From positions 11,907 through 75,906 of the forward strand of contig JACPLO010000001.1 in the NCBI GenBank assembly GCA_016186495.1: a stretch of 64,000 bases of DNA, given 5' to 3'. The notes under the pieces were generated by a model. That model saw only the letters and a program-made list of their open reading frames with translations. It had not been told where the DNA came from and did not search any database. Made by a program: the position numbers and the translations under genes. Position 1 is the first letter of the stretch. Every line of letters starts with the position of its first letter. This DNA comes from Candidatus Niyogibacteria bacterium (GTDB taxonomy: Bacteria; Patescibacteriota; Minisyncoccia; JACROR01). Positions 127-59,766 of the stretch are shown piece after piece.

Positions 127-254
127 ATATATGAATCCCGTTAGAAATCGTGGACGCATAATTATAATATATAATGCCGATAAAACATTAAAATTTATAA
201 GTAATATCGTAGAACGCGCAGCGCTTTTAGTGTCCGCGTCCTATTTCTAATGGG

Positions 255-2669
255 ATGAAACAATACAATCATAAAGCAATAGAAAAAAAATGGCGCGAGA
301 AATGGCAAAAAAACGGGCTTTATAGAACCGAAGAGAATTTTAAAAAATCCAAAAGTTATGTTTTGGATATGTTTCCTTATCCTTCGGGCGAAGGACTTCA
401 TGTGGGGCATCCGAAGGGGTATATCGCGACTGATATTTATTCGCGCTGCCAAAAAATGAAAGGCAAAAATATCTTGCGGCCAATGGGGTGGGACGCGTTC
501 GGGCTGCCGGCGGAAAACTACGCTCTTGAACACAAGATTCATCCTAAAGCGGCGGTGGATAAAAACATAAAAAGATTTAAAAAACAGCTGTCTCTTTTAG
601 GCTTTAATTATGATTGGTCGCGCGAGATTAACACCACGGATCCGGATTATTACAAATGGACCCAGTGGATTTTTCTAAAACTTTTTGAAAAAGGATTGGC
701 TTACGAGTCAAATGAGCCGATTAATTGGTGTCCGTCGTGCCTGACCGGCTTGGCTAATGAGGATTTGGAAGGAAATGTTTGCGAGCGGTGCGGCAGCGCG
801 GTGGAAAAAAAACCTCTGCGGCAGTGGATGTTAAAAATCACCGATTACGCGGAGCGTTTATTGGAAGATTTGGAAGAACTAAATTGGCCGGAATCCATTA
901 AAGAATCGCAGAGGAATTGGATCGGAAAAAGTCAGGGAGCGGAAATAGATTTTGGCGTTGTCGGGAATAATGAAAAAATAACAGTTTTTACCACGCGTCC
1001 CGACACGCTTTTTGGCGCTACTTATTGCGTGCTTTCTCCGGAACACAAAATAATTAAAAATTTAAAATTTAAAATTAAAAATTACAGTGAGATCAATGAA
1101 TACATTGAAAAAGCGGCGGCTAAATCCGAAATTGAACGAATTGCCGAGGATAAAGAAAAAACCGGCGTGGAATTAAAGGGGATTAAGGCGATTAATCCGG
1201 CGAATAACGAAGAATTGCCGGTTTTCATCGCGGATTACGTGCTGATTCATTACGGTACGGGCGCGATTATGGCCGTGCCGGCGCATGATGAACGGGATTG
1301 GCAATTTGCCAAGAAATTCAATTTGCCGATTAAACAGGTAATCTGCCAGTTTTATCCGGAACCTAAATGTCCGGTTCTGGATAACGCTTATCTCGGCGGG
1401 GGAAAGCTGGTGCAATCCGGAAAGTTTAATGGAATGGATTCTGAAAAAGCAAAAAAAGAAATCACCAAGTTTGTCAACGGAAAAATTGCCGTTAAATATA
1501 AATTGCGCGATTGGGTATTTTCCCGCCAGCGTTATTGGGGCGAACCGATTCCGATTATCCATTGCGAAAAATGCGGGGCCGTGGCGGTGCCGGAAAAAGA
1601 TTTGCCGGTGAAGTTGCCTAAAGTCAAACATTATGAGCCGACAGGCACGGGAGAATCGCCGTTGGCGGGGATAAAAAATTGGATGAAAACAAAGTGCCCG
1701 AAGTGCGGCGGAAAAGGAAAAAGGGAAACCAACACGATGCCGCAATGGGCGGGCTCGTCCTGGTATTATCTTCGTTATCTTGATCCGAAGAATGATCAGG
1801 CGCTTGTTGACAAGAAAAAAGAAAAATATTGGTCGCCGGTTGACGTGTACGCGGGCGGAGCGGAGCACGCGACGCGCCATTTGATTTACGCGCGTTTTTG
1901 GCATAAATTTCTCTATGACCTCGGGGCGGTGAATTATTCCGAACCTTTTAAGCGCCTTCAAAACGTGGGATTGATTATTGCCGAAGACGGCCGAAAAATG
2001 AGCAAACGTTACGGTAATATCATTAATCCCGACGATATCGTGGAAGTTTACGGCGCCGACACTTTACGGATTTATGAAATGTTTATGGGGCAGTTTGATC
2101 AGGCGGCCAACTGGAACACCGAAAGCATTATCGGGGCAAGAAGATTTTTGGAAAAGATTTGGCGATTAGCGGAAAAAATCGGGAAGCCGGAACCGCGGAT
2201 TAAGAACAAAAGAATTGAATATTTAATTAATCAAACCATTAAGAAAGTCGGCGAGGATATTGAAGAATTTAAATTTAACACCGCGATCGCTCAAATGATG
2301 ATTTTATTAAATGAGCTGGAAAAAAGCGGAACAACGCCGAAAAATGTTTTTGAGCCGTTTCTTAAAATTCTCGCGCCGTTCGCGCCGCATCTTAGCGAAG
2401 AACTCTGGGAAAAAATGGGAAACAAAACTTCGGTTCATTCGGCAAAATGGCCGGAGTACGATCCAAAAATGATTAAGGAAAAAATTTTTGAATTGGTGAT
2501 TCAAATAAACGGCAAAGTGCGGGCAAAAATGGAAGCGCCGGTTGAAGCGAGCAAAACCGAACTTCAAGAGCTGGCGCTCAATCATCCCGTTATAAAAGAA
2601 AAATTAGCCGCCACCGCGCCTAAAAAAATAATCGTCGTCCCCGGCCGCTTGGTAAATGTGGTTGTTTAA
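255..2669 (+). CDS. leuS: leucyl-tRNA synthetase
   Basis: 804 aa; class I aaRS HIGH motif (PSGEGLHVGHPKGY), KMSKS (KMSKR), LeuRS editing/CP1 and anticodon-binding regions recognisable. Confidence 0.95.
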   Translation: MKQYNHKAIEKKWREKWQKNGLYRTEENFKKSKSYVLDMFPYPSGEGLHVGHPKGYIATDIYSRCQKMKGKNILRPMGWDAFGLPAENYALEHKIHPKAAVDKNIKRFKKQLSLLGFNYDWSREINTTDPDYYKWTQWIFLKLFEKGLAYESNEPINWCPSCLTGLANEDLEGNVCERCGSAVEKKPLRQWMLKITDYAERLLEDLEELNWPESIKESQRNWIGKSQGAEIDFGVVGNNEKITVFTTRPDTLFGATYCVLSPEHKIIKNLKFKIKNYSEINEYIEKAAAKSEIERIAEDKEKTGVELKGIKAINPANNEELPVFIADYVLIHYGTGAIMAVPAHDERDWQFAKKFNLPIKQVICQFYPEPKCPVLDNAYLGGGKLVQSGKFNGMDSEKAKKEITKFVNGKIAVKYKLRDWVFSRQRYWGEPIPIIHCEKCGAVAVPEKDLPVKLPKVKHYEPTGTGESPLAGIKNWMKTKCPKCGGKGKRETNTMPQWAGSSWYYLRYLDPKNDQALVDKKKEKYWSPVDVYAGGAEHATRHLIYARFWHKFLYDLGAVNYSEPFKRLQNVGLIIAEDGRKMSKRYGNIINPDDIVEVYGADTLRIYEMFMGQFDQAANWNTESIIGARRFLEKIWRLAEKIGKPEPRIKNKRIEYLINQTIKKVGEDIEEFKFNTAIAQMMILLNELEKSGTTPKNVFEPFLKILAPFAPHLSEELWEKMGNKTSVHSAKWPEYDPKMIKEKIFELVIQINGKVRAKMEAPVEASKTELQELALNHPVIKEKLAATAPKKIIVVPGRLVNVVV

Positions 2670-3618: not shown

Positions 3619-3767
3619 GGAAATACCTGACTTTCAAGACACATTTTGCTCGCTCCTGCGGCTCGCTTCATTCTATCCTCGGCGAAAAAATTTTTTGTTA
3701 AAGAAATATTATAACAAAAAATACCAATCTTTTTCGCCTGCGGGCGGTCTTGAAAGTCAGTATTTCC
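3619..3767. repeat. 149-bp element bounded by 22-bp near-perfect inverted repeats (long hairpin / MITE-like), followed by a T-run
   Basis: GGAAATACCTGACTTTCAAGAC (3619-3640) vs GTCTTGAAAGTCAG-TATTTCC (3747-3767), 21/22 complementary; inner GGCGAAAAA/TTTTTCGCC pairing; CTTTTTTG follows. Confidence 0.6.
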
Positions 3768-5648: not shown

Positions 5649-5726
5649 AATGATTATATTTATTTAAAAAAACAAAACTGTTGCATTTTTTAATGAGGTA
5701 TGTTATTATATTTTTAGTATAGATTT

Positions 5727-5755
5727 TTGACAGTTAAATTTGACAGTTATAAAAA
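5727..5755 (+). promoter_or_regulatory. candidate promoter with duplicated TTGACAGTTA box upstream of 5791 gene pair
   Basis: Direct repeat TTGACAGTTA at 5727-5736 and 5740-5749 (13-bp period); TATAAAAAT at 5748-5756; strong SD AAGGAGGT at 5779-5786 before ATG 5791. Confidence 0.35.
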
Positions 5756-5790
5756 TGGCAATTATGCCTTAAATAATAAGGAGGTAAGCA

Positions 5791-6303
5791 ATGCGACAGT
5801 ATGAATTGGAAGATGTAAAGGCTTATACAAGATCATTTTTAGGTGTGATATGTGTCGGTTTTCTGTTTATTTTGTTTAGTCTTATTTTTAGATTGATATT
5901 TGTCAATTTCGTTGACAACTATGAAATTGGTTATAGATATGAGACTTTTGGTGAGAATGCTGGCAAGGTTTCGGCACTTTCCAGAACAGGTTATTTCATT
6001 ACTTGGCCATTCAAAACTAAAATTCACACAATTGACGGACGCCCAATGCAGGTTTGTATCAGTTCAATCAACCGCGTACTGAATTGCAAATTAGTCCAGT
6101 TTAATCCAAAGGGGGTTGACCTATTTATTTCTTGGCATGGGCGCGGCAATTACGATAATGTAAGCACAACTCATGGACCGTCGCTATTAAATCAGATCCT
6201 TATGGCTTATGCTTATGAGGGTAGCGGCAAGGAGTATCCGTTTCTTACTATTATCCGCGAGTTGAAACCATCTGAAATTCAAATTCAGGAGGTCAAAAAG
6301 TGA
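5791..6303 (+). CDS. hypothetical membrane-anchored protein (paralog A of tandem pair)
   Basis: 170 aa, N-terminal TM helix, strong RBS; shares motif block (PMQVCISS..RVLNCKLVQFN) with downstream ORF. Confidence 0.5.
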   Translation: MRQYELEDVKAYTRSFLGVICVGFLFILFSLIFRLIFVNFVDNYEIGYRYETFGENAGKVSALSRTGYFITWPFKTKIHTIDGRPMQVCISSINRVLNCKLVQFNPKGVDLFISWHGRGNYDNVSTTHGPSLLNQILMAYAYEGSGKEYPFLTIIRELKPSEIQIQEVKK

Positions 6304-6743
6304 AGAAATTGCGTGTCGCTGGGATTACTTGCTTGGCGGCGTTAGTTCTTTTTTGGCTTATCTGCGTTCATTATGCAGAAGTAAACCAGTTGGGCATCCG
6401 CTGGAATTTCGTTACCGGCGAAATAAGCGCAGATATTCATAAAGGAATTAATGTAACGCCGCCTTGGGTTCTTGTCTCTCTTATTAACACGCACCCAATG
6501 AGGGTGTGTGTTACAACCTCCGGAAGAGGATTTAACTGCCGCCTAATTCAGTTTCAATCGAAATATTACCGCGAATTTGTTGAAACTGAAGGTTTCCGTT
6601 ATTGGTGGTGGGCAAATCGTATTTCTTTCAATTTTGGATATTCCGAGGAGTATCGAGGAATGAAAGATCTCTTGCGAGGATATTCTTATGGTGTCAAACA
6701 ATATTCGTTTGTAAAAACTTTGAAAGAATATCAAGAAGAATAA
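6300..6743 (+). CDS. hypothetical membrane-anchored protein (paralog B), GTG start overlapping upstream stop
   Basis: 147 aa, N-terminal signal/TM; GTGA start-stop overlap; motif PMRVCVTTSGRGFNCRLIQFQ matches paralog A. Confidence 0.5.
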   Translation: MKKLRVAGITCLAALVLFWLICVHYAEVNQLGIRWNFVTGEISADIHKGINVTPPWVLVSLINTHPMRVCVTTSGRGFNCRLIQFQSKYYREFVETEGFRYWWWANRISFNFGYSEEYRGMKDLLRGYSYGVKQYSFVKTLKEYQEE

Positions 6744-6748
6744 ATATG

Positions 6749-6790
6749 AGCCTGGATTCGCTAACGCGACGCTCCAGGCTTTTTTATTTT
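6749..6790 (+). terminator. intrinsic terminator
   Basis: AGCCTGGA...TCCAGGCT stem followed by TTTTTATTTT. Confidence 0.6.
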
Positions 6791-6934
6791 ATGCTAAAAG
6801 TAACTATTGATTAAACTGAATTTTTATTTTAATATCTCAATCAGTAATCGCGCGCTTAAAATGCGCGTTTCAGCAAATTTAAAAACAATGGATTATCCAT
6901 TTATAAGGAAGAAAAAAATGAAAGGAGGAATAAA

Positions 6935-8035
6935 ATGATTCTGCCCTATCAGCATTTAATCAGCGCGGTGGACGGCAAAAAGCCGATAGTTTTAGCCGAG
7001 CCGAAGATTTTAAAAAAACAAATTCAAGCGGCGACGATTGACTGCCGTTTGGGAGAAAGAATTTTTCGGATAAGCACTTCAATGATTCCCCAATCAAATG
7101 AAAAAATCAGCGAGCTTATCAAGAAATATTGCATTTACGATTTTAAAATAAAAGAAGGCTCGGTTTTAGAGCCGAACGCCTGTTACCTTATTCCTTTAAG
7201 GGAAGAATTAAAGCTTCCGAAAGAGTTCTTCGCCGTGTTCAGCCCGAAAAGTTCAAGCGGCCGGGTGGATACTTTCATCAGAGTTTTAAGCGATAATTTT
7301 TCCAGATACGATATTGTTTCTTATGGCTATCAGGGAAAACTTTATCTGGAAATTATTCCGCTTTCCTTTCTTATCGGGATTGCGCCCGCCATTGAATTAG
7401 TTCAATTAAGGATCAAGAGCAGAGACAGTTTTCTTTCAAATGAAGAATTGCGTTTGGCGCACGTCAAACACGGCTTGGTTTATTCGAATAATGGAGAATT
7501 ATTAGATGCTGACGAAATAGTTTTGCAGAGTGGAAGCGTTCAGTTCAGCATTGATCTTAGCGGAAGGGAAATCGTGGGGTTTAAAGCAAAAAGAAATCCC
7601 ACTGATAAAATTGATCTTTTCCGCAAGAATTATTATGAAGCGGAAAATTTTTGGATTCCCATTCAAAGGCCGAAAAATCGCGAATTAGTTCTGACGCCCG
7701 GCGATTTTTATCTTTTAACGACAAAAGAAAAGATAAAAATCCCGCCGGAGTACGCCGCGGAAATTATGGTGTACGATGTTACTGCCGGGGAATTACGGAC
7801 TCATTACGCGGGATTTTTTGATCCCGGCTTTGGGGGAGAATTTGGCACAAACGTGGTTTTGGAGGTCAGGGCAAGGGACGTTCCTTTTCGGCTTTTTGAC
7901 GGCCAGCCGATTTGCCGGATGGTTTTTGAAAAAATGCTGGAAACGCCGGAAAAAATTTATGGAGAAGGATTTGGTTCCCATTATACCGGCAGCGGGCCTT
8001 CTTTAAGCAAGCATTTTAAAAAAGCATGGCGGTAA
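6935..8035 (+). CDS. long-form dCTP deaminase-like protein (tandem dUTPase-fold domains)
   Basis: 366 aa; C-terminal half has dCTP deaminase motifs (SIDLSG, HYAGFFDPGFGGE, VVLEV), N-terminal half a degenerate copy (ATIDCRLGE, SPKSSSGRVD). Confidence 0.6.
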   Translation: MILPYQHLISAVDGKKPIVLAEPKILKKQIQAATIDCRLGERIFRISTSMIPQSNEKISELIKKYCIYDFKIKEGSVLEPNACYLIPLREELKLPKEFFAVFSPKSSSGRVDTFIRVLSDNFSRYDIVSYGYQGKLYLEIIPLSFLIGIAPAIELVQLRIKSRDSFLSNEELRLAHVKHGLVYSNNGELLDADEIVLQSGSVQFSIDLSGREIVGFKAKRNPTDKIDLFRKNYYEAENFWIPIQRPKNRELVLTPGDFYLLTTKEKIKIPPEYAAEIMVYDVTAGELRTHYAGFFDPGFGGEFGTNVVLEVRARDVPFRLFDGQPICRMVFEKMLETPEKIYGEGFGSHYTGSGPSLSKHFKKAWR

Positions 8036-18636: not shown

Positions 18637-18690
18637 AATGCTGGGAGGGAGATTTGAACTCCCACTCTCTCGCGAGAACTAGCTCCCTTG

Positions 18691-18799
18691 TCCCGTTAGA
18701 AGTGTCGGAGATGGGATTTGAACCCATACAGTCTTGCGACTACTAGCTCCTGAAGCTAGCGCGTCTGCCAATTCCGCCACTCCGACACTTCTAACGGGA
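18691..18799. repeat. palindromic element copy (13-bp perfect TIRs TCCCGTTAGAAGT / ACTTCTAACGGGA) whose cargo is the tRNA-Leu(CAG) gene
   Basis: Inverted repeats abut both ends of the tRNA acceptor stem; same CCCGTTAGAA core as repeats at 24261, 27370, 40571 and variant at 20556. Confidence 0.7.
18704..18786 (-). tRNA. tRNA-Leu (anticodon CAG)
   Basis: 83 nt read by eye: GTCGGAG TG GCG GAATTGGCAGA CGC G CTAGC TTCAGGA GCTAG [var arm TAGTCGCAAGACTGT] ATGGG TTCAAAT CCCAT CTCCGAC, discriminator A; no encoded CCA. Confidence 0.85.
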
Positions 18800-18849
18800 T
18801 GAACTAGCGCGTCTGCCAATTCCGCCATCCCAGCTTTTTCAACCGGAGA

Positions 18850-20553
18850 TTAATCCGTTAAAAATTTCCATACTTTTTTGGTATCAATATACCATTCATT
18901 TACTTGAGTAAAGCGATCTGAAGGAACGGTAATGTGGGAAATATCCATACCTTTTAAACGTTCAGGGAGAATGTATAAATAGTGCGGCGCATAAAGGAAG
19001 ATTGCCGGAATATCTTTTTGGACTTCTTTTTGGAAAGCGACGTAGTTTTTAGCGCGTTTTGCCGGATCGGCGATACTTCTCGCTTTCTCTAAAAGATCAT
19101 CCGCAGTGATGTTGGCATAAAGGGCGATATTTAAACCCGGATCGTTCCTTTGGGAAGAATGCCAGAAAGCGAACGGATCAGGATCAAATCCTGTTATTTC
19201 TCCGAAAAGAAGAGCATCGTAGTCCCGCGGCCGGATAATATTTTTTTCAAAATCGCCAATTTCAAATATTTTAACATCAGTTTTCACGCCGATGTCTTCC
19301 CACATTGTTTTTAAAAGTTCCGCGGTTTTGACCAATTCCGGCGCCATTGAAGTAGACAAAGAAAGGGTCAGAAGGATTGTTTCTTTTTTAATTTTCTTTT
19401 CCATTATTCCCGATTTTTCGTTTAATTTCCATCCTGATTTTTCAATCAGGATTTTGGCTTGTTCCGGGTCATAATCGTTGTTATTTTCTTCTTTGATAGA
19501 ACCAAGCGTGTCCGGCGGAATAGGATGGTCAATGGCCGATCCGTAACCGGCCAACGCTTCTTCAATAATTTTTCTTTTATCAACGGCCAGTTTCAGGATT
19601 TTTCTGACTGCGGCATCGGCCAGGATTTTATTCTTATTTTGATTTAAAAAAACGCCAAAAACGCGGGAAAGAGTCATTGTTTGAAGCCGGGATTCTTTTC
19701 TAAGAATAGCCGATATTTTTTGGGAAGAAACCGCTCCAATGCTGTCAATAATCCGATTTTCATAAGCCGCCAAGAGATCAGCTTCCGAGTTGTAGAATTT
19801 AAAAATTATCTTTTTTAAATAAGGTTTTTTTAAGGCGTAATCTTCAAAAGATTCCAAAGTGTAAGAATTGATGATTCCCGATGAATTCCGTGATATTTTT
19901 TTAACGCGGTAGGGGCCGGCGCCGATCGGTTCAATGTTAAATTGGCTTAAACTGATTTGTTCGGGCTTAAGGTCGGCCCATAAATGGTAAGGAAGGATTT
20001 CCAAAGTAGTATTTTCCAGAAACGGAGCGTAGGGTTTTTTGAGAATGAATTTAACGGCGCGGGAATTAATAATTTTCGTTTCCACTCCCTCCCAATTAGC
20101 TCTTTTCGGGCTTTTAGTAAAAGGATCTTGAGCAAGTTTGACGGTAAAAATAATATCTTGAGCGGTAATCGGCTGGCCGTCTGACCAGCGCAAATTTTCT
20201 TTCAGAAAAAAAGTATAAGTAAGATTGTCTTCGCTGATTTCATATTTTTCCGCTAATTCCGATTTTAATCCGCCTTGGCCGTCTGATTTTAAAAGGCCGG
20301 CGTAGATAAGTTCAGTCAGATCGTGGTCTGCTTCGGAGACGGCGATCAAAGGATTGATAAAACGAGGAAAACCGATGACTCCTTCGTAAAGGACGCCGCC
20401 GTCAACCGGCGTTTCAACGGCGATTCGGTCATTGATAATCATTGAAAGGCCGATTATTCCCGTAAAAAACAGCAAGGCGAAAAACGCAAAAGCGGCTTTT
20501 TCTTTGATATTCAGCGTGCGGATAATAAAGCGGATTTTGGTAAAAGACGGCAA
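18850..20553 (-). CDS. ABC transporter substrate-binding protein, family 5 (peptide/nickel type), orphan
   Basis: SBP_bac_5-like sequence; N-terminal signal anchor; ORF extends to 20670 but probable start is TTG at 20553 preceded by GGGG SD, leaving the tandem repeats in the 5' leader. Confidence 0.7.
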   Translation of the reverse strand: MPSFTKIRFIIRTLNIKEKAAFAFFALLFFTGIIGLSMIINDRIAVETPVDGGVLYEGVIGFPRFINPLIAVSEADHDLTELIYAGLLKSDGQGGLKSELAEKYEISEDNLTYTFFLKENLRWSDGQPITAQDIIFTVKLAQDPFTKSPKRANWEGVETKIINSRAVKFILKKPYAPFLENTTLEILPYHLWADLKPEQISLSQFNIEPIGAGPYRVKKISRNSSGIINSYTLESFEDYALKKPYLKKIIFKFYNSEADLLAAYENRIIDSIGAVSSQKISAILRKESRLQTMTLSRVFGVFLNQNKNKILADAAVRKILKLAVDKRKIIEEALAGYGSAIDHPIPPDTLGSIKEENNNDYDPEQAKILIEKSGWKLNEKSGIMEKKIKKETILLTLSLSTSMAPELVKTAELLKTMWEDIGVKTDVKIFEIGDFEKNIIRPRDYDALLFGEITGFDPDPFAFWHSSQRNDPGLNIALYANITADDLLEKARSIADPAKRAKNYVAFQKEVQKDIPAIFLYAPHYLYILPERLKGMDISHITVPSDRFTQVNEWYIDTKKVWKFLTD

Positions 20554-20555
20554 AT

Positions 20556-20633
20556 TTACCCCGTTAAATAGTTGCGAGGCGAATTTAACGGGGTTTACCC
20601 CGTTAAATAGTTGCGAGGCGAATTTAACGGGGT
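20556..20633. repeat. two tandem 39-bp units each containing palindrome CCCCGTTAAAT-N13-ATTTAACGGGG
   Basis: Units at 20559-20597 and 20598-20636 nearly identical; related to the CCCGTTAGAA palindromic family; would encode PVKFASQLFNGVN x2 if translated. Confidence 0.75.
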
Positions 20634-20695
20634 GAACGCGCTGCTTAAATAATGAGAATATTTTTTTCACAATGATTTTATGGTGATAACGGGAA

Positions 20696-20923: not shown

Positions 20924-21007
20924 ATTTTATAGTATATAAAGCAATGCGGCCGGTTGTCAAGCCGAATAAAAAAGAGCAATCAATGATTGCTCTTTTTCTT
21001 TTAAAAT

Positions 21008-22630
21008 TTAATCTTCATCTTCTTTCATTAAATTATCGGCATTTGGATCCTCGGCACTGGAAAGCACTTGGATTTTTCTAAAATACACCGAAGGGCAAAG
21101 GCCGCTTACTCTGACATAGCCGGAATTAGAACCGCAGTGGCCAACGCACTCCGTAAGATTATTCCCAACCGCTTTTACCTGATTAAGGGTTTCATAAGCG
21201 CTGCCGCTGATGAAGGCGCTTGAAACCGGTTCTATTTTACCGTCAGGATAAATTTTATAAAATTCACTTACGTATATCTTGAATTGGCCGCTTTCAACTT
21301 CCACTTCGCCCGAACGGCCATTGATGTAAAGCCCGAACGGCTCCTTATGGTATTTTAAATCTTCAATTATCATCTTTATAAGTTTATCGGAGGAAACGGA
21401 TTTTTTTGATGAGACAATCATATTCGCGGTTCTTGCTTCCGGAATTTCTCCGAATTCGGCTCTGGAGTGGCCGTTTGAAATGATGTTGTCGCGGCCGGCG
21501 CTGATCCGATCATGGAGATAGCTTTTTAAGATTCCGTTCTCAATTAAAACAACTTTTTTTGCCGGCTGGCCGTCATCGTCAAATTTATAAGATCCGAAAT
21601 AATTTTCCATCGTGGGATCGTCTATTATGTCTATATTATCCGGCAAAATTTTTTGGCCCAATTTTGCTTTAAAAGCGGTGGCCCCTTTCTCGTCAATCAA
21701 TCTGGCGGAAGCCAGATGCGCGCCGAATCCTTCATGGAAAATCGTATAAGTCGTTTCCGGAGAAAGCACCGCCCGATAAAGGCCGGATTCAAGTTCCGGC
21801 GCCTGATGAAATTTTTCCGCGAGATTTCCCATTATTTTTTGAAGATCATCCGTTTCTTTTTTACAATTAAAACCGTCGGTTAATTTTCTTGTTTCATAAA
21901 ATTTTATATCTCGGCCTTTAATGTCTTTTACGGTTATCATCCAGCTGATAAAACCGTAAATCTCGGAAGTAAAAATTTGATTTTCCGATTCTTGGCCGTC
22001 CATTCGTTTTTCAAAAGAAGCAAACCAGCAATTTTCTTCGGTGATTGAAAATTCAAGCTCCGAATGTTTAATTTTTTTATTTTTTGAAATTAAATTATCC
22101 GCCTCCTCAATAACGCCGGCGATTTTCTTAAAATCACAAATTAATCGTTTTTCCGCTTCGGAATAATTCGTTGATTTTCCTTTTGAAAGTTTCTGAAATT
22201 CTTTATCTTTTTTATATTCGGAAATTTGGGAGTGATGCTGAAAATATTCGCTTAAAGCCATTTTAAACGCGCCGTCAATCGCTTTATTGATATTTTTTTT
22301 AAGCGCGTTTGATTTTAAAGAAGTTCTGTCCGTATAATGGCCGATGCCCAAGCCGTTGGCCTTGGGATGGTTAAAATCGCCGACGCCGATTGTAACGCAA
22401 AAGCCGATATTGGCGTACTCATTCGGTTTTTTTAAATCATTGACAAGGCCGCCATTTTCCGAAATTATGCTGAGATTTCTAATCTTCTTTAAATTGATTC
22501 CCATGTATACCGGACTAAAAATTATTTCTTTATCCACGATAAACCGCCTGACCCTGACTTTTTTCCATTTTTCAAAAAGTTCGCGGGTTAAAATTAAAAT
22601 TTCGTCTTTTTCCAAAGATTTATCATTCAT
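21008..22630 (-). CDS. TldD/PmbA-family metallopeptidase-like protein
   Basis: 540 aa; HEGFGAH metal-binding-like motif, C-terminal GHCGSNSGYVRVSG resembling the TldD/PmbA G-x-C-G-K-G motif. Confidence 0.5.
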   Translation of the reverse strand: MNDKSLEKDEILILTRELFEKWKKVRVRRFIVDKEIIFSPVYMGINLKKIRNLSIISENGGLVNDLKKPNEYANIGFCVTIGVGDFNHPKANGLGIGHYTDRTSLKSNALKKNINKAIDGAFKMALSEYFQHHSQISEYKKDKEFQKLSKGKSTNYSEAEKRLICDFKKIAGVIEEADNLISKNKKIKHSELEFSITEENCWFASFEKRMDGQESENQIFTSEIYGFISWMITVKDIKGRDIKFYETRKLTDGFNCKKETDDLQKIMGNLAEKFHQAPELESGLYRAVLSPETTYTIFHEGFGAHLASARLIDEKGATAFKAKLGQKILPDNIDIIDDPTMENYFGSYKFDDDGQPAKKVVLIENGILKSYLHDRISAGRDNIISNGHSRAEFGEIPEARTANMIVSSKKSVSSDKLIKMIIEDLKYHKEPFGLYINGRSGEVEVESGQFKIYVSEFYKIYPDGKIEPVSSAFISGSAYETLNQVKAVGNNLTECVGHCGSNSGYVRVSGLCPSVYFRKIQVLSSAEDPNADNLMKEDED

Positions 22631-22850: not shown

Positions 22851-23951
22851 ATGAAAGTTCTAAGCATTAGTTCGGATAGAAACATTTTTAACGAAAATTC
22901 TGAAGTCAGGCAGAGAACGATTGAATACGGCCGTTTGGCGGAAGAATTGCATATCATCGTCTTTACAAAACGGAAATTGGAAACAAATCCTAAAATTCAA
23001 ATTTCCGAAAATACTTTTTTTTATCCGACAGATTCATTTAGTCGATGGAGTTATATTTTTAACGCGGTAAAAATCGCCAAAAAAATAATTGGAAATTATC
23101 CTGATAAGTTTCTTGTCACAAGTCAGGATCCTTTTGAAACTGGATTGGCCGGCTGGCTAATCGCACGCCAGTTCAATTTTCCGCTTCAGCTTCAAATTCA
23201 CACTGATTTTCTCTCTTCGTATTTTCGGCGCGAATCTTTTTTGAATAAAATCCGCGTTTGGCTCGCTAAATTTTTGATTTTTCGCGCCGCTTGTCTCCGC
23301 GTCGTTTCCGAAAGGATAAAAAAATCATTGGCGGCCATCGGTTATCCTTTAAATTTCGTAACAGTTTTGCCGATTTTCGTTGATGTTGGAAAAATAAAAA
23401 ACGCGCCGATTAAAACCGATCTCCGGCAAAAATATCCGCAATTTGATTTCATTATTTTGACGGCGTCGCGCCTGACGCGCGAGAAAAATATCGGCTTAGC
23501 CGTTGAAGTGATGGCTGAAATTATAAAAGAATATCCTCAAACCGGCTTGATTATTGTCGGCAACGGACCGGAAGAGCTTGATTTAAAATTTAAAATTAAA
23601 AATTTAAAGTTGGAAGAAAATGTTATTCTTGAAGATTGGACGGAGGATCTCGCGTCATATTATAAAACCGCGGATTTGTTTCTCCTTACTTCCAATTACG
23701 AAGGATACGGCCGGACTCTTATTGAAGCTGTTTTCTCGGGATGCGGCGCGATTTCCGCCAATGTCGGCATTGCCGATGAAATTTTGGCTAAAGAAAATAT
23801 TTTTGAGCCGGACGATAAAAAGGCCCTTGTGGAAAAAATAACAAAAGCAATGAAAGGCGAACTTCTTCAAATTAAGTTTAGGGCAGAAATACGGACAAAG
23901 GACCAGTATTTAGAAAAATATAAAAAATCATGGGAAACATGCAGCTATTAA
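22851..23951 (+). CDS. glycosyltransferase family 1 (GT4-type)
   Basis: 366 aa; C-terminal GT-B motif EGYGRTLIEAVFSGCGAIS. Confidence 0.8.
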   Translation: MKVLSISSDRNIFNENSEVRQRTIEYGRLAEELHIIVFTKRKLETNPKIQISENTFFYPTDSFSRWSYIFNAVKIAKKIIGNYPDKFLVTSQDPFETGLAGWLIARQFNFPLQLQIHTDFLSSYFRRESFLNKIRVWLAKFLIFRAACLRVVSERIKKSLAAIGYPLNFVTVLPIFVDVGKIKNAPIKTDLRQKYPQFDFIILTASRLTREKNIGLAVEVMAEIIKEYPQTGLIIVGNGPEELDLKFKIKNLKLEENVILEDWTEDLASYYKTADLFLLTSNYEGYGRTLIEAVFSGCGAISANVGIADEILAKENIFEPDDKKALVEKITKAMKGELLQIKFRAEIRTKDQYLEKYKKSWETCSY

Positions 23952-25075
23952 TTTTGACTCAAAAAATAGATATAAATGACGATAATCTTGGTTTTTTTGT
24001 GCGTTGGGTTGAAGAATTCGCTAAAAATGTTGAAGAGGTTTTTGTAATCGCGAATTTCACCGGCGAACGCCATTTGCCGGACAAGGTAAAAATTTTTTCT
24101 TTGGGAAAAGAAAAAGGATTCGGAAGAATCAGGCGGTATTTTAATTTTTTCCGTTATCTTTTTGAGATTTTGCCGAAATCGGACGCGGTGTTCGTCCATA
24201 TGATTCCCGTTTGGGTGGTGGCGGGCTGGCCGCTTTATAAAATTTTCAGAAAAAAAGTTTATCCCGTTACATTTTTAAAACCCCGCGGTCTTGCCGCAGG
24301 GGTATCACAACAATATTTTAACATTTTTGCGTGGTTTAATGCTCTGTTGAAATGTAACGGGATTTATTTATGGTACACGCATAAGTCCGTCACTTTTTCT
24401 TTGCGGATGGCGGAAAAAATAGTTGAAAAAATATTTACCGCCTCGCGCGAAAGTTTTCGCTTGCCGTCCAAAAAGGCGGAAATTTTAGGCCATGGCATTG
24501 ATATAGAAAAATTTAAACCGGCGGTTAATTATCAATCATCCGCCAGCTATCAAATTATTACGGCGGGCCGAATCGCGCCGAGCAAGAATTTGGATATTTT
24601 GATTGAGACCGCGGAAATTTTAAAAAAACAGAAGATGAATTTTGAGATGAAAATTGCCGGCGCACCGATCACCGCGGCTGACGACCAATATTTTAAAAAG
24701 CTGAAAGATTTAATTGTAAAAAATAATTTAAAAGATACCATCAGATTCAGCGGCGCGATTCCTTACGGCGAAATTGAAAAATTTTATCAAAAAGGGGATT
24801 TATTCGTGAATTTAAGCGCCACCGGTAGCTTGGATAAGTCTGTTCTTGAAGCGATGGCGTGCGGCGTGAATGTTCTTGTTTCAAACGAGGCCTTTTCTAA
24901 TATCCTGCCGGAGGAAAATTTTATTAAAAATTCAACAGTCGGACAAATTACTGAAAGAATAAAATATTTTATGGATAATCGGGATTCGGCGAATAAAACG
25001 ATTTTGCGCGAAATAATCGTTAAGAATCATAATCTGAAAAATTTAATCAAGAAATTGGTTGAAAATATAAATTGA
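23930..25075 (+). CDS. glycosyltransferase family 1 (GT4-type) carrying an in-frame palindromic element
   Basis: 381 aa; GSLDKSVLEAMACGVNVLVSN; residues ~111-145 encoded by repeat 24261-24363. Confidence 0.8.
   Translation: MGNMQLLILTQKIDINDDNLGFFVRWVEEFAKNVEEVFVIANFTGERHLPDKVKIFSLGKEKGFGRIRRYFNFFRYLFEILPKSDAVFVHMIPVWVVAGWPLYKIFRKKVYPVTFLKPRGLAAGVSQQYFNIFAWFNALLKCNGIYLWYTHKSVTFSLRMAEKIVEKIFTASRESFRLPSKKAEILGHGIDIEKFKPAVNYQSSASYQIITAGRIAPSKNLDILIETAEILKKQKMNFEMKIAGAPITAADDQYFKKLKDLIVKNNLKDTIRFSGAIPYGEIEKFYQKGDLFVNLSATGSLDKSVLEAMACGVNVLVSNEAFSNILPEENFIKNSTVGQITERIKYFMDNRDSANKTILREIIVKNHNLKNLIKKLVENIN
24261..24363. repeat. palindromic element copy inside GT1 CDS (14-bp TIRs ATCCCGTTACATTT / AAATGTAACGGGAT, 75-bp core)
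   Basis: Perfect 14-bp inverted repeats; translated in-frame as YPVT...KCNGI within the protein. Confidence 0.7.
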
Positions 25076-27369: not shown

Positions 27370-27449
27370 ACCCCGTTAGAAAGTTATTTTTAAACTATAT
27401 GAATAAGATTTATTTCTGGATGTTTACGAAGCGAGCTTTCTAACGGGGT
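27370..27449. repeat. intergenic palindromic element copy (14-bp TIRs ACCCCGTTAGAAAG / CTTTCTAACGGGGT, 52-bp core)
   Basis: Perfect inverted repeats with the CCCGTTAGAA core. Confidence 0.75.
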
Positions 27450-39103: not shown

Positions 39104-39400
39104 ATGTTTGGTTTTGATATAAATTTTTGGCTTATCTTGGGCTTTTTTGGGCAATTCCTGTTTTTTATGAGATTTTTTGTCCAATGGATCGCTTCCGAAA
39201 AAAGAAGGGAAAGTTTTTTCCCGGTTGCTTTTTGGTATTTTAGCATCGGCGGCGGCGTTATTCTTTTAATTTACGCCGTGTCCATTAAAGATCCGGTTTT
39301 TATTTTAGGGCAGGGCGCCGGATTGTTAATTTACATCAGAAATTTAGTTTTGATTCGGAAAAAAAATATTTTAAATAAATCTCACGCTCCGCAAATATGA
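39104..39400 (+). CDS. lipid-A-disaccharide synthase N-terminal (LAB_N) domain membrane protein
   Basis: 98 aa, 3 TM; RFFVQWIASEK...FWYFSIGGGVILLIYAVSIKDPVFILGQGAGLLIYIRNL matches LAB_N pattern as recalled. Confidence 0.5.
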   Translation: MFGFDINFWLILGFFGQFLFFMRFFVQWIASEKRRESFFPVAFWYFSIGGGVILLIYAVSIKDPVFILGQGAGLLIYIRNLVLIRKKNILNKSHAPQI

Positions 39401-41166
39401 ATTTATTAAGTTTAAAAAACATATTTAGCGCGGATTTTTTGGAGAAATACGGCCTAGTTTTTATTCTCGCGCTTTTTGTCGCGTTTGGCATAGTCGGAAT
39501 TTTTTATAATTATTCAATTTCCAATACGATTGGCGAAGAGTCTATTTTGATGGCGGCCACCTTAAAAATGATCGCCGAATTATCATTAAGGCCGAATTAT
39601 CCGACTATGTATCATATGCCGTTCGGGACATATTTTTATTTGCCGTTTTTTATTGTTTTGCTTGTTTTTTTAAGGCTTTCCGGCTTATTTGCCAGCTTAG
39701 AGGAATTGAAAGTTTTTGGAATAACAGATTATGAAAAATTATTGCCGATGGCAAGATTTATTTCAATATTTTTAGGAGTAGCCTCGGTATATATGGTTTA
39801 TAGAATTTGTGAAAAATTATTCAATAATAAATTTATTTCTCTAGTCGCTTCATTTTTGCTTGCCACCAATCTAATATTCGTGCAGATGTCCCATTTCGGC
39901 AAAGTTTGGATTATCCAGATATTTATTGTTCTGTTAACTTTTTATTTTATTGTTGCTTTATATCAAAAAGAACGGCCCGGATTTAAGGATTATTTTTATC
40001 CCGCGCTTTTGACGGCAATTTCTTTCGGCGTCCATTTTATCGGCATATTGATTTATCTGCCATTTTTAACGGCGCATTATTTGAAAAATAAAGAAAAGAA
40101 ATTTAGGGAGATTTTTATAACAAACAGGAATTTTTGGCTCTCTAATTTAGTGATCGCGATTATATTATTGTTTATTTTTTATTTAAACCCTTATGGATTT
40201 GCCAATTACGGCCTGCGATCCGTGGCGGCGGCCGCGGCTATTATTCAGGAGAGCGCCGGCGCCAGCGGCGGTTATGATTTTTGGTTAATGTTCAGCAATT
40301 ACGGAAAAGTATTGTTTGAAAACGGTCCGGCTCTGACCATAATATTTGTTTTCAGTTTAATTCCCTTATTTTTGCGAAGGAGAGATTTATTTTTTATATT
40401 CAACTCTTTTATATTCGGCTACTATATTATTATAGGCCCGATCCTCGGCCCGACAATCGGAATTAACGGCCGAGGATTTTATATCTCGCCTATTATACCG
40501 TTTATGGCTGTTGTGTCCGCTTTTGGTATTTATGTGTTTTATAAAAGTGATTTATTAGGCAAAAGGATAAATCCCGTTAGAAATATTATTTCTAACGGGA
40601 TAAAGATTTTCTTACTGGCTTTGGTTTTTCTTTTTTCCGCGTACATTCCGATTTTATGGAATTATAAGCTGATTCAGCCCAGCGCCTGGATTTTGGCTAA
40701 AGATTGGATTTATAATAATCTACCGTCGGGAGTAAGCATAATCAATCTCAATACCGAGCTTCCCATTAATGAAAATAAGGAGTCTGTGGAAGATACCAGA
40801 GTTTATACGCCGAATTTTTTTACAAAAAAACAGGATTATTTGTCGTCAGTCGGCGATAATCAATATCCCAAGCCCAATTATTACGTTTTAAAGTTCGCCG
40901 ATTATAGAGAGGGTATTCCTAAGGCCGTTTTAGATAGAGGTTTTGATTATATGGTTATAGAATGGTGGGATCAGGCGAGATATGAAAAAACTATGCAAGA
41001 TGTCCGTCAACTTAATTTAGAAGAAATAAATTTAATTAAAATATTTCCGGCTGGCGCCTCTTCCACTACCTTAAATATGGATATGGAAAATATAAAGAAT
41101 CCCCTTATTAATTTGCGAAAAATAGACCATACGGGACCGGTTATCGCTATTTATAAATTAAAATAA
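39397..41166 (+). CDS. GT-C fold membrane glycosyltransferase-like protein (ArnT/PMT_2-like)
   Basis: 589 aa, >10 TM; loop motif IGEESILMAATLKMIAE; contains in-frame palindrome at 40571-40601. Confidence 0.45.
   Translation: MNLLSLKNIFSADFLEKYGLVFILALFVAFGIVGIFYNYSISNTIGEESILMAATLKMIAELSLRPNYPTMYHMPFGTYFYLPFFIVLLVFLRLSGLFASLEELKVFGITDYEKLLPMARFISIFLGVASVYMVYRICEKLFNNKFISLVASFLLATNLIFVQMSHFGKVWIIQIFIVLLTFYFIVALYQKERPGFKDYFYPALLTAISFGVHFIGILIYLPFLTAHYLKNKEKKFREIFITNRNFWLSNLVIAIILLFIFYLNPYGFANYGLRSVAAAAAIIQESAGASGGYDFWLMFSNYGKVLFENGPALTIIFVFSLIPLFLRRRDLFFIFNSFIFGYYIIIGPILGPTIGINGRGFYISPIIPFMAVVSAFGIYVFYKSDLLGKRINPVRNIISNGIKIFLLALVFLFSAYIPILWNYKLIQPSAWILAKDWIYNNLPSGVSIINLNTELPINENKESVEDTRVYTPNFFTKKQDYLSSVGDNQYPKPNYYVLKFADYREGIPKAVLDRGFDYMVIEWWDQARYEKTMQDVRQLNLEEINLIKIFPAGASSTTLNMDMENIKNPLINLRKIDHTGPVIAIYKLK
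40571..40601. repeat. 31-bp perfect palindrome ATCCCGTTAGAAATA-T-TATTTCTAACGGGAT inside CDS
   Basis: 15-bp arms with single-base centre; translated as NPVRNIISNGI; minimal member of CCCGTTAGAA family. Confidence 0.8.
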
Positions 41167-59736: not shown

Positions 59737-59766
59737 AACAGTGTTTTAACCACGGACATTTTCAAT
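59722..59766 (+). terminator. perfect 19-bp-arm palindrome / terminator at transposase 3' end
   Basis: AATGTCCGTGGTTAAAACA|GTGTTTTAACCACGGACATT followed by TTCAATT. Confidence 0.6.

Follow-up and report, generated by a model that had tools for sequence, protein, structure and literature searches.

We found seven copies, at six loci, of a short inverted-ended DNA element in the 64-kb window analysed here (the whole stretch of DNA taken from a Candidatus Niyogibacteria genome), and these copies are probably a non-autonomous mobile element that is defined only by its ends. The element resembles both MITEs and the palindromic elements of Rickettsia (RPEs), and the insertions, the empty sites in relatives, the direct repeats, the frame bias, the presence/absence differences and the occurrence in phage contigs described below were all directly observed. 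The genomes of CPR/Patescibacteria are very small, so that in-frame palindromic insertions in their genes are notable, and our literature searches retrieved no report of MITEs, in-frame palindromic insertions or nested tRNA genes in CPR/Parcubacteria. Selfish DNA would here be reshaping proteins, start codons and even a tRNA gene although the genome is reduced, something that came as a surprise in Rickettsia.

An element family defined by its termini

The copies end in inverted termini of about 13 nt with the consensus (A)YCCCGTTA(G/A/C)A(A/T)N, the arms measuring 12-15 nt in all seven window copies: they are perfect in five, carry a single mismatch in the copy at 135-256 and are 13 nt long in the copy that holds a tRNA gene. 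Copy length ranges from 31 to 122 nt, with anything from 1 nt up to a 95-nt core between the arms, and a strand is assigned to the tRNA copy only. The window contains 20 occurrences of the motif CCCGTTA, where 7.2 +/- 2.6 would be expected, and a count of at least 20 was reached in 0 of 100 shuffles. Twelve of these 20 matches form six inverted pairs, one belongs to the seventh copy, whose opposite arm is mismatched, and the leftover seven solo matches equal the number expected by chance. Moreover, among the approximately 13 perfect inverted repeats of the window with arms of at least 12 nt, six have the CCCGTTA core in common. A previous sequence-only reading of this DNA had listed five loci and made recurrence beyond chance a test of the family; the recurrence is clear from these counts and all five loci are present, but the count was too low, as the copy at 135-256 had been missed, and the element placed at 20556-20633, although a family member, consists of two tandem 37-nt copies. 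The DNA searched for copies amounts to about 64 kb of the source genome and a few tens of kb of relatives.

Direct repeats of 4 bp flank the copies at four loci (TTTA/TTTA at E1 and E2, TAAA/TAAA at E3 and TGAA/TGAA at E6) and also the first tandem copy E4a (TTTA/TTTA), and unclean flanks were found for the tRNA copy (E5, TTCA/CAAG), for the second tandem copy E4b and for a copy in FtsK of the related locus L006. The interiors are unrelated, since pairwise local alignments of the cores score no higher than shuffled sequence, and the full-length homology expected between the copies of a MITE was accordingly not found. Three other hallmarks of MITEs are present: a size below ~600 bp with no capacity to encode a transposase, terminal inverted repeats shared by the seven window copies and by the copies in L006 and L025, and target-site duplications with matching empty sites, save in the unclean copies (tRNA, second tandem, L006 FtsK). 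The arms are not self-complementary, and they are perfect within each copy yet unlike between copies. Four of the seven copies are coding, at three loci, and the copies have no common placement relative to genes.

In-frame insertions in protein-coding genes

Copy E1 (24261..24363; 103 nt, 14-bp perfect arms ATCCCGTTACATTT, 75-nt core, TTTA on both sides) lies within a family 4 glycosyltransferase gene on the plus strand (23930..25075; Pfam match to Glycos_transf_1), to which it adds a net 105 nt, that is, 35 aa in frame. NCBI annotates a 378-aa form of this protein, starting 3 codons downstream of the start of the 381-aa ORF, and the protein P0001 (Candidatus Niyogibacteria) is 100% identical to it. 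As the sequence-only reading had proposed, the ORF continues unbroken through the element (...KKV YPVTFLKPRGLAAGVSQQYFNIFAWFNALLKCNGI YLWYTHK...). That reading had also asked for a comparison with orthologues, and in a 12-sequence alignment a 35-column gap falls precisely at E1 in all 11 homologues, down to 53% identity, while the DNA of the nearest syntenic relative (L016) has an empty site reading AAA AAA ATT TAT TTA TGG. All 119 other homologues among the matches listed measure 257-362 aa, compared with 378/381 aa here. Judged by these alignments, the 35-aa segment is an insertion and not ancestral sequence. The GT4 gene is absent from L006, hence no filled/empty comparison was available there.

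The idea that the insert forms a surface loop fits the AlphaFold model, in which residues 108-139 have a pLDDT below 50 and are placed between a helix (93-107) and a strand (145-148); outside the insert the pLDDT is mostly above 90 and the GT-B fold is kept, the insert being the sole low-confidence segment of an otherwise confident model. At the RNA level E1 is predicted to fold with -39.5 kcal/mol (z = -5.6).

Two other loci with coding copies, whose in-frame placement is an addition to the earlier reading, show the same arrangement. The minimal copy E3 (40571..40601; 31 nt, 15-bp arms ATCCCGTTAGAAATA separated by 1 nt, TAAA on both sides) adds a net 33 nt, or 11 aa (INPVRNIISNG), in frame to a GT39/PMT_2 membrane glycosyltransferase gene (39397-41166). 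Exactly these 11 aa are missing from the closest homologue (P0272, 70% identical) and from most other GT39 homologues, and the L024 DNA has the empty site AGA ATA AAG ATT. Representatives of 50% clusters had suggested a 5-aa difference with a partly homologous right arm, a reading that we rejected because closer homologues gave a clean 11-aa insertion. The tandem 37-nt copies E4a and E4b (20558-20594 and 20597-20633; 12-bp arms ACCCCGTTAAAT) are inserted near the N-terminus of an SBP_bac_5 solute-binding protein encoded on the minus strand (18850-20670), and together they add 78 nt (2 x 39), which is 26 aa in frame (PVKFASQLFNGVN twice). This segment is missing from the orthologues in L011, L025, L026 and L001, and the copies are present in L006 with arm changes.

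Every coding copy adds a stop-free multiple of 3 nt (105, 33, 39+39, and 54 in UvrA of L025), whereas the intergenic copies add 82 and 124 nt, which are not multiples of three. E3 and the E4 copies are read in one and the same frame, CCC GTT ... AAC GGG, giving 'PV...NG'. Insertion in frame in a way compatible with the fold, as described for RPEs, is thus seen in GT4 (35 aa), GT39 (11 aa), the solute-binding protein (26 aa) and UvrA of L025 (18 aa), and we infer that the inserts are translated as extra peptide segments. For annotation this is a warning, as extra segments of 11-35 aa, and likewise the 'second' tRNA-Leu described below, are products of insertion.

Copies in a spacer and at a start codon

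Copy E2 (27370..27449; 80 nt, 14-bp arms ACCCCGTTAGAAAG, TTTA on both sides) lies in the spacer that separates a PMT_2 gene from an epimerase gene, where it amounts to a net insertion of 82 nt (RNA fold z = -5.2), and the corresponding empty site was found in L016 (AAATTCAGAACATTAATAAT). Copy E6 (135..256; 122 nt, arms ATCCCGTTAGAAAT and ATTTCTAATGGGAT with 1 mismatch) is flanked by TGAA on both sides, for a net 124 nt, and reaches into the start codon of the gene for LeuRS, a protein identified by its Pfam families tRNA-synt_1 and Anticodon_1. The A of the LeuRS ATG is the last base of E6 (..GGGA followed by TGAAACAA), and the old ATG, which was duplicated, now begins an upstream ORF of 38 codons, whose stop is a TAA within the right arm of E6. 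Insertion at a start codon would be tolerated at such a TGAA target because the terminal ...GGGA rebuilds an ATG on it.

A tRNA-Leu gene nested in a tRNA-Leu gene

Copy E5 (18691..18799, minus strand; 109 nt, 13-nt arms TCCCGTTAGAAGT) carries a complete 85-nt tRNA-Leu(CAG) gene (18702-18786, minus strand), and its tRNA-Leu cargo, noted before, was called as tRNA-Leu(CAG) by both ARAGORN and Rfam. The 20-bp perfect arms of 18691-18799 are made of 13 bp of element and the 7-bp acceptor stem of the cargo tRNA, and the RNA of E5 is predicted to fold with -59.9 kcal/mol (z = -8.5). E5 is itself nested in another, outer tRNA-Leu gene, whose anticodon loop it interrupts, an observation added to the earlier reading. 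This resident tRNA-Leu(CAG) (18639..18834, minus strand; 5' half 18834..18800, 3' half 18690..18639) is split after the TTCA of its anticodon loop, at position 35/36. The flanks form no clean duplication: the left one is TTCA and the right one CAAG, or CAAA in L006, and the host tRNA lacks its base C31. An uninterrupted tRNA-Leu gene, 93% identical to the joined outer halves, is found in L027, and copies orthologous to E5 in L006 and L025; the first 8 arm nt are conserved among these orthologues, in genomes whose RNase J is 79% identical.

Could the nested tRNA be an intron of a still functional outer tRNA-Leu, and the elements in general be intervening sequences removed from RNA, their stem directing where the RNA is cut and rejoined? 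Patescibacteria are documented to have group I introns at tRNA position 35/36 (PMC13011429), and E5 interrupts its host at this very position. Furthermore, in the window and in L006 the outer tRNA-Leu retains a perfect acceptor stem, T arm and variable arm, and L001 has a second nested tRNA-Leu, with a different stem, at a locus from which the CCCGTTA motif is absent and which has no repeat family of its own. The Rfam matches in the window are only two tRNAs, with no intron family among them, and at 109 nt the unit is too small to be a group I intron. At the junction a 1 x 5 internal loop, and not a bulge-helix-bulge, lies beside a 13-bp helix, and by inspection the outer halves cannot be joined in any way that would restore a canonical 7-nt anticodon loop with U33, so that none of the features expected of a tRNA intron was found. 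The outer tRNA-Leu was seen neither by ARAGORN nor by Rfam, and ARAGORN with introns allowed likewise made no call; in a grid of 126 artificial excisions ARAGORN called almost any anticodon, and such an excision test is therefore uninformative. A functional tRNA-Leu(CAA) with an intron at 33/34 was considered and rejected, since it needs an anticodon stem of 7-8 bp and lengths that differ between the window and L001. In L025, moreover, the outer gene is wrecked, with acceptor halves that are unpaired and an insertion of two GC-rich palindromes, and the inner tRNA has stayed intact; the coding copies are all stop-free multiples of 3, a constraint to which a spliced sequence would not be subject. 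We therefore regard removal from RNA as highly improbable, and the outer tRNA-Leu is most likely a disrupted relic.

The insertion of E5 in the anticodon loop would be tolerated because the copy brings along a tRNA-Leu(CAG) that is predicted to work. It can be considered a natural case in which an essential tRNA gene was disrupted and replaced, at the level of predicted function, by a 109-nt unit.

The same ends in phage contigs

The sequence-only reading was not aware of such a family in CPR-type genomes. The family is present in a CPR genome but is not confined to CPR, as its ends were matched 18 times in genuine phage contigs, among them IMGVR_UViG_3300038429_000794, with 12 of the matches at the shorter spacing; a composition-matched control, which was run only at that shorter spacing, gave 2 matches compared with the 12 of the element ends. 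The phage copies share bases outside the searched pattern (TCCCGTTAGAAAT) and have the flanks TTTA, TTCA and CTCA, and one of them lies in frame within a small ORF, where it reads CPVRNWISNGV. When the minimal element was compared by BLAST with annotated phage and plasmid collections, the matches were all insignificant. An element shared in this way links CPR and phage genomes, and could potentially be used to trace contact between phage and host.

Empty sites and differences among relatives

Empty sites were found in relatives for five of the six loci (GT4, the 27370 spacer, GT39, the solute-binding protein and tRNA-Leu(CAG)). The related genomes also differ in the sites that they have filled. 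L006, with RNase J 97% identical and DNA 85-89% identical, has a copy at the 3' end of FtsK and the window does not; L025 has a copy in UvrA (54 nt, 18 aa) and L026 does not; L027 (93%) has neither the tRNA copy nor the solute-binding-protein copies. The interrupted-tRNA allele is thus present at 97% and 79% RNase J identity and absent at 93%.

Orthologous copies keep their arms paired through two-sided changes, which is unexpected for the end of a dead transposon unless there is hairpin-templated repair or selection on the hairpin. Template switching during replication is an established bacterial mutation mechanism that perfects imperfect inverted repeats, and palindromes made in place by such switching at quasi-palindromes, with no movement, could account for arms that are perfect within copies and different between them, and for both arms changing together in orthologues. 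The process cannot explain the 10-13 nt sequence and the tetranucleotides that six unrelated loci and phages have in common, nor the clean empty sites of relatives with neither arm. Template switching may explain how the arms stay perfect after insertion; as a sole explanation it is already contradicted by the end sequence common to the loci, and we consider it scarcely credible.

Selection on the hairpin leads to another reading, in which the hairpins are RNA or DNA structures selected by the host (processing sites, terminators, translational regulators) that do not move. This would agree with the strong predicted hairpins (RNA fold z = -5 to -8.5), with the location of several copies, in the window and in phages, at gene borders, at start codons and just 5' of ribosome-binding sites, and with those phage matches that are plain A-run/hairpin/T-run terminators. 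It would also agree with the conservation of the first 8 arm nt at 79% RNase J identity, accompanied by two-sided compensatory changes. It does not account for the four copies at three loci that are lineage-specific in-frame coding insertions, or for flanking direct repeats with exact empty sites in relatives; the copies have no common position relative to genes, and a regulator has no need to break the anticodon loop of a tRNA. We find this explanation very unlikely.

Possible mode of insertion and candidate enzyme

With insertion of a mobile element as the preferred reading, we infer both an enzyme and a mode of movement. The enzyme would be encoded elsewhere, most likely as a DDE-type transposase, and would recognise both ends; the unit would be inserted at short T/A-rich sites, mostly TNNA, leaving a 4-bp direct repeat, for which a 2-bp repeat with a terminal A...T pair is an equally good description. 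A coding insertion would be tolerated when the added length is a stop-free multiple of three. The palindrome is open in two of three frames, and a coding copy would then give rise to an extra loop of the protein. A search of the 64-kb window and of about 0.4 Mb of related and phage loci turned up no transposase with matching ends, and no pair of ends 0.3-4 kb apart was found flanking a gene in the related and phage loci examined. The only transposase-like ORF of the window is a degenerate rve-type gene (58785-59597), which was rejected as a partner since its surroundings have no YCCCGTTA ends. Once an enzyme is found, the tiny recognition sequence together with a free cargo would make the element a candidate minimal substrate for transposition.

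A different enzyme is conceivable. The unit could fold as one DNA hairpin on the lagging strand, and an HUH/Y1 enzyme could cut this hairpin at the base, beside a short tetranucleotide, as in palindrome-associated derivatives of IS200/IS605 or in REPIN-RAYT systems. The hairpin stem is the only conserved part while the loops vary freely, the minimal 31-nt copy is almost pure hairpin, arm complementarity is kept in orthologues, and in many copies, phage ones included, the same tetranucleotide (TTTA or TTCA) stands on just one side. On the other hand, the clean two-sided repeats vary from copy to copy (TTTA, TAAA, TGAA, CTCA, TTCA, CGCG) and look like target duplications, which IS200/IS605 elements are not known to make. 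The known REP sequences are extragenic units, each of them a palindrome in its own right with a GTAG-type head; here four of the seven copies, at three loci, lie inside coding sequences, the arms are not self-palindromic and the window contains no Y1_Tnp or RAYT-like gene, so that the features of REP or REPIN units were not found. We consider single-strand movement of this kind quite unlikely, and transposition between two recognised ends is retained as the preferred reading. Among other classes of repeats, integron attC sites were discarded by inspection, as the order of the GTT.../...AAC cores is reversed, and XerC/D dif-like sites and CRISPR repeats bear no resemblance to the element.

A more far-reaching possibility, which is speculative and in our opinion unlikely, is that two 13-nt YCCCGTTAGAA ends constitute a minimal and promiscuous cassette system, including a self-rescuing 109-nt tRNA-replacement element shared by phages and CPR bacteria. 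If this were true, anything between two YCCCGTTAGAA ends would get moved, and the tRNA-Leu cassette would target the resident anticodon loop and replace the function of the tRNA. Being common to phages and CPR bacteria, the system could therefore be carried between hosts by phages; the interrupted-tRNA allele would spread between lineages by recombination, and the nested tRNA-Leu of L001 would be a further product of the same process.

Relation to known elements

The element works like RPEs, by analogy, in that short palindromes lie in frame in protein genes, where reading continues through them and yields extra peptide, are found as well in the RNA genes and spacers of a small reduced genome, and, as the GT4 insert suggests, behave as tolerated loops. 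A consensus of ~100-150 bp runs through the whole length of RPE copies, whereas here only about 13 nt per end are shared and the interiors measure 1 to 95 nt; the visible 4-bp flanking duplications, the tRNA-carrying copy and the phage occurrence are further differences. The earlier suggestion of an RPE- or Correia-like family that makes in-frame peptide insertions is supported, with qualifications that concern the sharing of termini only, the target-site duplications, the nested tRNA copy and the occurrence outside CPR. Since the organism is a Candidatus Niyogibacteria and the copies have no interior consensus with each other, we do not claim membership of the RPEs, or of the Correia elements.

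With MITEs and Correia elements the copies have in common a small size, terminal inverted repeats and target-site duplication; like them, they encode no transposase, are present in some strains and absent from others and, when transcribed, give strong RNA hairpins. Classical MITEs, like RPEs and Correia elements, share their interiors. In Correia elements the repeats measure 26 bp, the duplication is TA, the conserved interior includes an IHF site and the location is mostly intergenic. The present element differs in its ~13-nt ends, a 4-bp (or 2-bp) duplication, unrelated interiors and the coding location of about half of its copies. A lead to the nature of the enzyme could come from piggyBac, with the end CCCTAGAAAG and the target TTAA, and from the IS1380 family, whose ends start with CC and whose duplications measure 4-5 bp. 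The ends of our element begin CC(C)...TAGA, with a 4-bp duplication at T/A-rich tetranucleotides (TTTA, TAAA; TTAA once, on one side), a resemblance that involves about 10 bases and general consensus sequences; no transposase of the IS1380/piggyBac type was found in the window or in the related and phage loci examined.

Genomic islands and prophages that integrate in tRNA genes use a tyrosine integrase, replace only the 3' part of the tRNA and leave a direct repeat. E5 likewise enters a tRNA gene and supplies a replacement, by which the host would keep a working tRNA-Leu(CAG), as predicted; it differs in placing a whole 85-nt tRNA with 13-nt inverted arms inside the anticodon loop, with no integrase and an entire unit of 109 nt. 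The group I introns of Patescibacteria (PMC13011429) are found in the same phylum and at the same point of the anticodon loop, after position 35; E5 differs from them in having no group I signature, in its length of 109 nt, in containing a tRNA and in the degenerate outer tRNA of L025.

Inverted-repeat elements on a CCCGTTA core

All five palindrome loci claimed by the sequence-only reading are present at its coordinates, and their arms are perfectly complementary over 12-15 nt and built on CCCGTTA / TAACGGG; at the tRNA locus the arms reach 20 nt, made up of 13 nt of element and the 7-bp acceptor stem. A search allowing up to 3 mismatches found a copy overlooked by that reading, at 135-256, with arms ATCCCGTTAGAAAT / ATTTCTAATGGGAT and adjoining the start codon of leucyl-tRNA synthetase (LeuRS), so that the window holds seven copies at six loci. 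The motif also recurs well beyond chance, with 20 occurrences of CCCGTTA in the 64-kb window against 7.2 ± 2.6 expected, a count reached by 0 of 100 shuffles. Twelve of the 20 form six inverted pairs and one more lies in a copy with a mismatched other arm; the seven solo occurrences equal the number predicted by chance. The window contains about 13 perfect inverted repeats with arms of at least 12 nt, six of them with the CCCGTTA core. Every copy is predicted to fold as a strong hairpin (z = -5 to -8.5), while the cores, 1 to 95 nt long, have no sequence relationship with each other.

Genes for RNase J, PmbA/TldD and a family-5 solute-binding protein, together with a long cluster for cell-surface glycosylation, mark the window as part of a bacterial genome. 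NCBI entries named Candidatus Niyogibacteria match its GT4 and GT39 proteins at 100% identity. Relatives were found through RNase J among Niyogibacteria and other Parcubacteria: L006 (97% identity, with DNA 85-89% identical), L027, L003 and L011 (about 77-93%), L025 (79%), L026 (77%) and L001 (71%). Two more loci, to which RNase J identity is not applicable, are syntenic with the GT4 region (L016) and the GT39 region (L024). L006 has about 3 kb of extra DNA (4632-7652, corresponding to 20961-21026 of the window) between the secG-side spacer and the PmbA/TldD gene, and lacks the GT4 gene beside the first glycosyltransferase; the surface-glycosylation region thus varies among strains with 97% RNase J identity.

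Empty sites, target duplications and reading frame

The 35-residue segment of the GT4 protein, which had been read as an insertion (24261-24363), indeed behaves as one: 11 aligned homologues have a 35-column gap over YPVT...CNGI, and the protein measures 378/381 aa compared with 257-362 aa in 119 other homologues among the matches listed. The empty site in L016 reads AAA AAA ATT TAT TTA TGG and the window AAAAAAGTT-T[103 nt]T-TATTTATGG, a net insertion of 105 nt. In the AlphaFold model (mean pLDDT 87.5) confidence falls below 50 only at residues 108-139, between helix 93-107 and strand 145-148, a placement that leaves the GT-B fold of the model undisturbed. The spacer copy at 27370-27449 likewise has an empty counterpart in L016, AAATTCAGAACATTAATAAT vs GAATTT[80 nt]TTAGAACATTAATAAT in the window (82 nt net). 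In the GT39 gene (40571-40601) the segment INPVRNIISNG is absent exactly from the closest homologue (70% identical) and from most others, and L024 has the empty site AGA ATA AAG ATT, giving a net insertion of 33 nt. Two GT39 homologues with 62% identity have an 11-aa segment at this position, INAAGNTIAYG and INFTVSVIFYG, either old decayed copies or independent insertions; no palindromic DNA was found at this position for the second (P0274).

The N-terminus of the solute-binding protein reads KQRVH[PVKFASQLFNGVN x2]LPSF in the window, from a tandem pair of copies (20558-20633); the 26 aa are missing in L011, L025, L026 and L001, and both copies are present in L006 (7984-8057). The tetranucleotide between them on the coding strand is TAAA in the window vs TTCA in L006. 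Because the window copies are identical to each other and the L006 pair differ at 6 positions, comparison of the two pairs suggests gene conversion or unequal exchange within the tandem pair after the strains diverged.

With boundaries set at YCCCG...CGGGR, left and right flanks are equal at six copies: TTTA at the GT4 copy, the spacer copy and the first tandem copy, TAAA at the GT39 copy, TGAA at the LeuRS copy and CGCG at a copy in the UvrA gene of L025. These flanks would represent a 4-bp target duplication or, equally, a 2-bp duplication with a terminal A...T (or G...C) pair, readings that are indistinguishable because the strings are identical under both. Copies in coding sequences add 105, 33, 39+39 and 54 nt, all multiples of three and without a stop codon; the two intergenic ones add 82 and 124 nt. 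The TTAGAA arms meet TAG/TAA in one of three frames; the coding copies of the window are read as CCC GTT...AAC GGG, and that in UvrA is read in the remaining open frame.

Two copies stop exactly at a start codon, that of LeuRS and, in L006 (18539-18646), that of the gene after ftsK. At both, ATGAA combines the terminal A of the element with the flank TGAA, which rebuilds the downstream ATG. The displaced original LeuRS ATG opens an upstream reading frame of 38 codons that terminates within the right arm, 4 nt ahead of the new ATG, and this might affect LeuRS translation.

Differences among relatives point to movement. The L006 copy located after the end of ftsK and before the following gene (108 nt, arms TCCCGTTAGTAATT) faces uninterrupted sequence in the window (...CTGTTAAATGAATTCAAAAATTAG), and the UvrA copy of L025 is absent from L026. 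L027 has neither the tRNA copy nor those of the solute-binding protein. Within the same organism, the GT4 copy was present in 4 of 4 assemblies from other samples and the 27370 spacer copy in both of the 2 that reach that far, all unchanged.

A tRNA gene nested within a tRNA gene

On the minus strand, at 18639-18834, a 109-nt element (18691-18799) holding a complete tRNA-Leu(CAG) interrupts an outer tRNA-Leu gene in its anticodon loop, after TTCA. ARAGORN and Rfam did not call the outer gene, whose 3' end lies 2 nt from the RNase J start codon. L027 has this gene uninterrupted (GCTGGGATGGCGGAATTGGCAGACGCGCTAGCTTCAGGAGCTAGTTCTCGCAAGAGAATGGGAGTTCAAATCTCCCTCCCAGCA); it matches the outer halves, once joined, at 93% identity, and the sequence downstream is also the same. 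The L027 allele did not arise from the filled one by simple excision, because host-tRNA base C31 is missing in the latter. The tRNA copy occurs with identical junctions in L025, though L027 is nearer to the window by RNase J; given the intact L027 gene and the loss of C31, either recombination between lineages or lineage sorting has therefore shaped the history of the locus.

Between the window and L006 the inner tRNA shows three two-sided compensatory changes in its variable and T stems and, judged from these substitutions, it is evolving as a working tRNA. The element arms have also changed on both sides (TCCCGTTAGAAGT / ACTTCTAACGGGA vs TCCCGTTAAAAAT / ATTTTTAACGGGA in L006), and one L006 tandem copy now has arms ACCCTGTTAAAT / ATTTAACAGGGT; selection on the hairpin could account for such changes, as could hairpin-templated correction. 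The outer tRNA looks intact in the window and L006 save for its loop. In L025 (GCA_016214345.1, 9706-9945) its acceptor halves are unpaired, and the D region has gained one GC-rich palindrome, CTGCCTACCGGCAGGCAGG, and the T loop a second, CGCCCAGGGCGGACCCGCCCTGGGCGG; both may belong to another small palindromic insertion family. Since the L025 outer gene is broken, the outer gene is probably a disrupted relic and the inner one the functional tRNA-Leu(CAG).

The junctions show no clean duplication, with TTCA on the left and on the right CAAG in the window and CAAA in L006. The left TTCA is consistent with a TNNA target and native to the loop C-TTCA-GGA. In L027 a solo arm, TTCA-TCTCGTTAGAAAT (2298-2315), is separated by 2 nt from the intact tRNA-Leu(CAG) downstream and provides the final codons and the stop (…ADSSR*) of the gene for the solute-binding protein; its window counterpart, the homologous spacer ATCTCCGGTTGAAAAA, is a weaker match. 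This solo arm suggests that the ends at one time flanked the tRNA gene, which they could have moved as cargo. A further tRNA-Leu(CAG), with encoded CCA, lies inside an outer tRNA-Leu-like gene in L001 (JACOVJ010000063, Ca. Niyogibacteria, 5735-5925). Its closing stem of 11 bp, TCCTTCACCTT / AAGGTGAAGGA, takes in the outer anticodon stem and has no CCCGTTA motif; the arrangement is either the same ancient event or a second one.

Element ends on phage contigs

Scanning IMG/VR for CCCGTTAGAA-N(1-31)-TTCTAACGGG gave 12 loci, compared with 2 for a composition-matched control at that spacing, and at N(32-62) 6 loci, 4 of them new, including one on an already-matched contig. Among the matches are ordinary terminators made of an A-run, a hairpin and a T-run. 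Other matches agree beyond the searched pattern: three contigs contain TCCCGTTAGAAAT. Four phage copies are flanked by TTTA, and equal flanks TTCA/TTCA and CTCA/CTCA were also seen; one copy lies at a start codon, with TGAA, as at LeuRS, and another is read through as CPVRNWISNGV within a small open reading frame. The TTCA...CAAG flanks of the window tRNA locus recur at a copy on a phage contig (L036, 3962-3990); at another (L030, 2557-2586) only CAAG recurs, after the right end. Terminases and head and tail proteins show the element-bearing contigs to be real phages. IMGVR_UViG_3300038429_000794 (L030, L036 and L045) is a Mu-like phage with MuA- and MuB-type proteins. Within 30 kb it carries at least 6 hairpins with YCCCGTTAGAR ends, in its early-gene region; several lie where two genes meet, and one is read in frame within a small open reading frame for a membrane protein. 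No significant matches came from annotated phage and plasmid collections.

Relation to known systems and mobilisation

Taken together, the interpretation first proposed, of a dispersed palindromic family making in-frame peptide insertions in the manner of Rickettsia palindromic elements (RPE), is supported. The likeness to RPE is functional, in that palindromes code for protein, and the likeness to MITEs is structural (inverted ends, target duplications, empty sites, no transposase); unlike MITEs, the copies do not have homologous interiors. We do not assign the family to RPE or to the Correia elements. Its most unusual features are the tRNA-in-tRNA copy and the ends common to phages. Literature searches turned up no description of MITEs or nested tRNAs in CPR or Parcubacteria; the closest paper describes group I introns at tRNA position 35/36 in Patescibacteria and mentions nothing comparable (PMC13011429).

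No candidate mobilising enzyme was found within the 64-kb window: the other reading frames scanned, each 120 aa or longer, belong to housekeeping or glycosylation genes or lack a Pfam match (for three at the 3' end, Pfam families come from one separate search only), and no locus examined has end pairs 0.3-4 kb apart enclosing a gene. Movement by a single-strand HUH enzyme would fit a hairpin-only architecture with loops free to vary, but flanking repeats that are equal yet variable between copies argue against it. The ends CC...TAGA and the 4-bp T/A-rich duplication presumably resemble those of IS1380-family and piggyBac-type elements, a lead and not a result. The sole transposase-like open reading frame, a degenerate HTH-rve gene (58785-59597), was rejected, its surroundings lacking the motif. 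This IS3/IS481-like gene (region 58785-59762) is probably frameshifted and is followed by a perfect 21+21-nt palindrome, AAAATGTCCGTGGTTAAAACA/TGTTTTAACCACGGACATTTT (59720-59762), unrelated to the CCCGTTA family. Elsewhere, at 3619-3767, a stem of about 21 bp, GGAAATAC-CTGACTTTCAAGAC ... GTCTTGAAAGTCAG-TATTTCC, its inner 14 bp perfect, surrounds about 106 nt just upstream of a glmS-like gene (3816-5648); it has no Rfam match and may be either a structured leader or an inverted-repeat element of another type.
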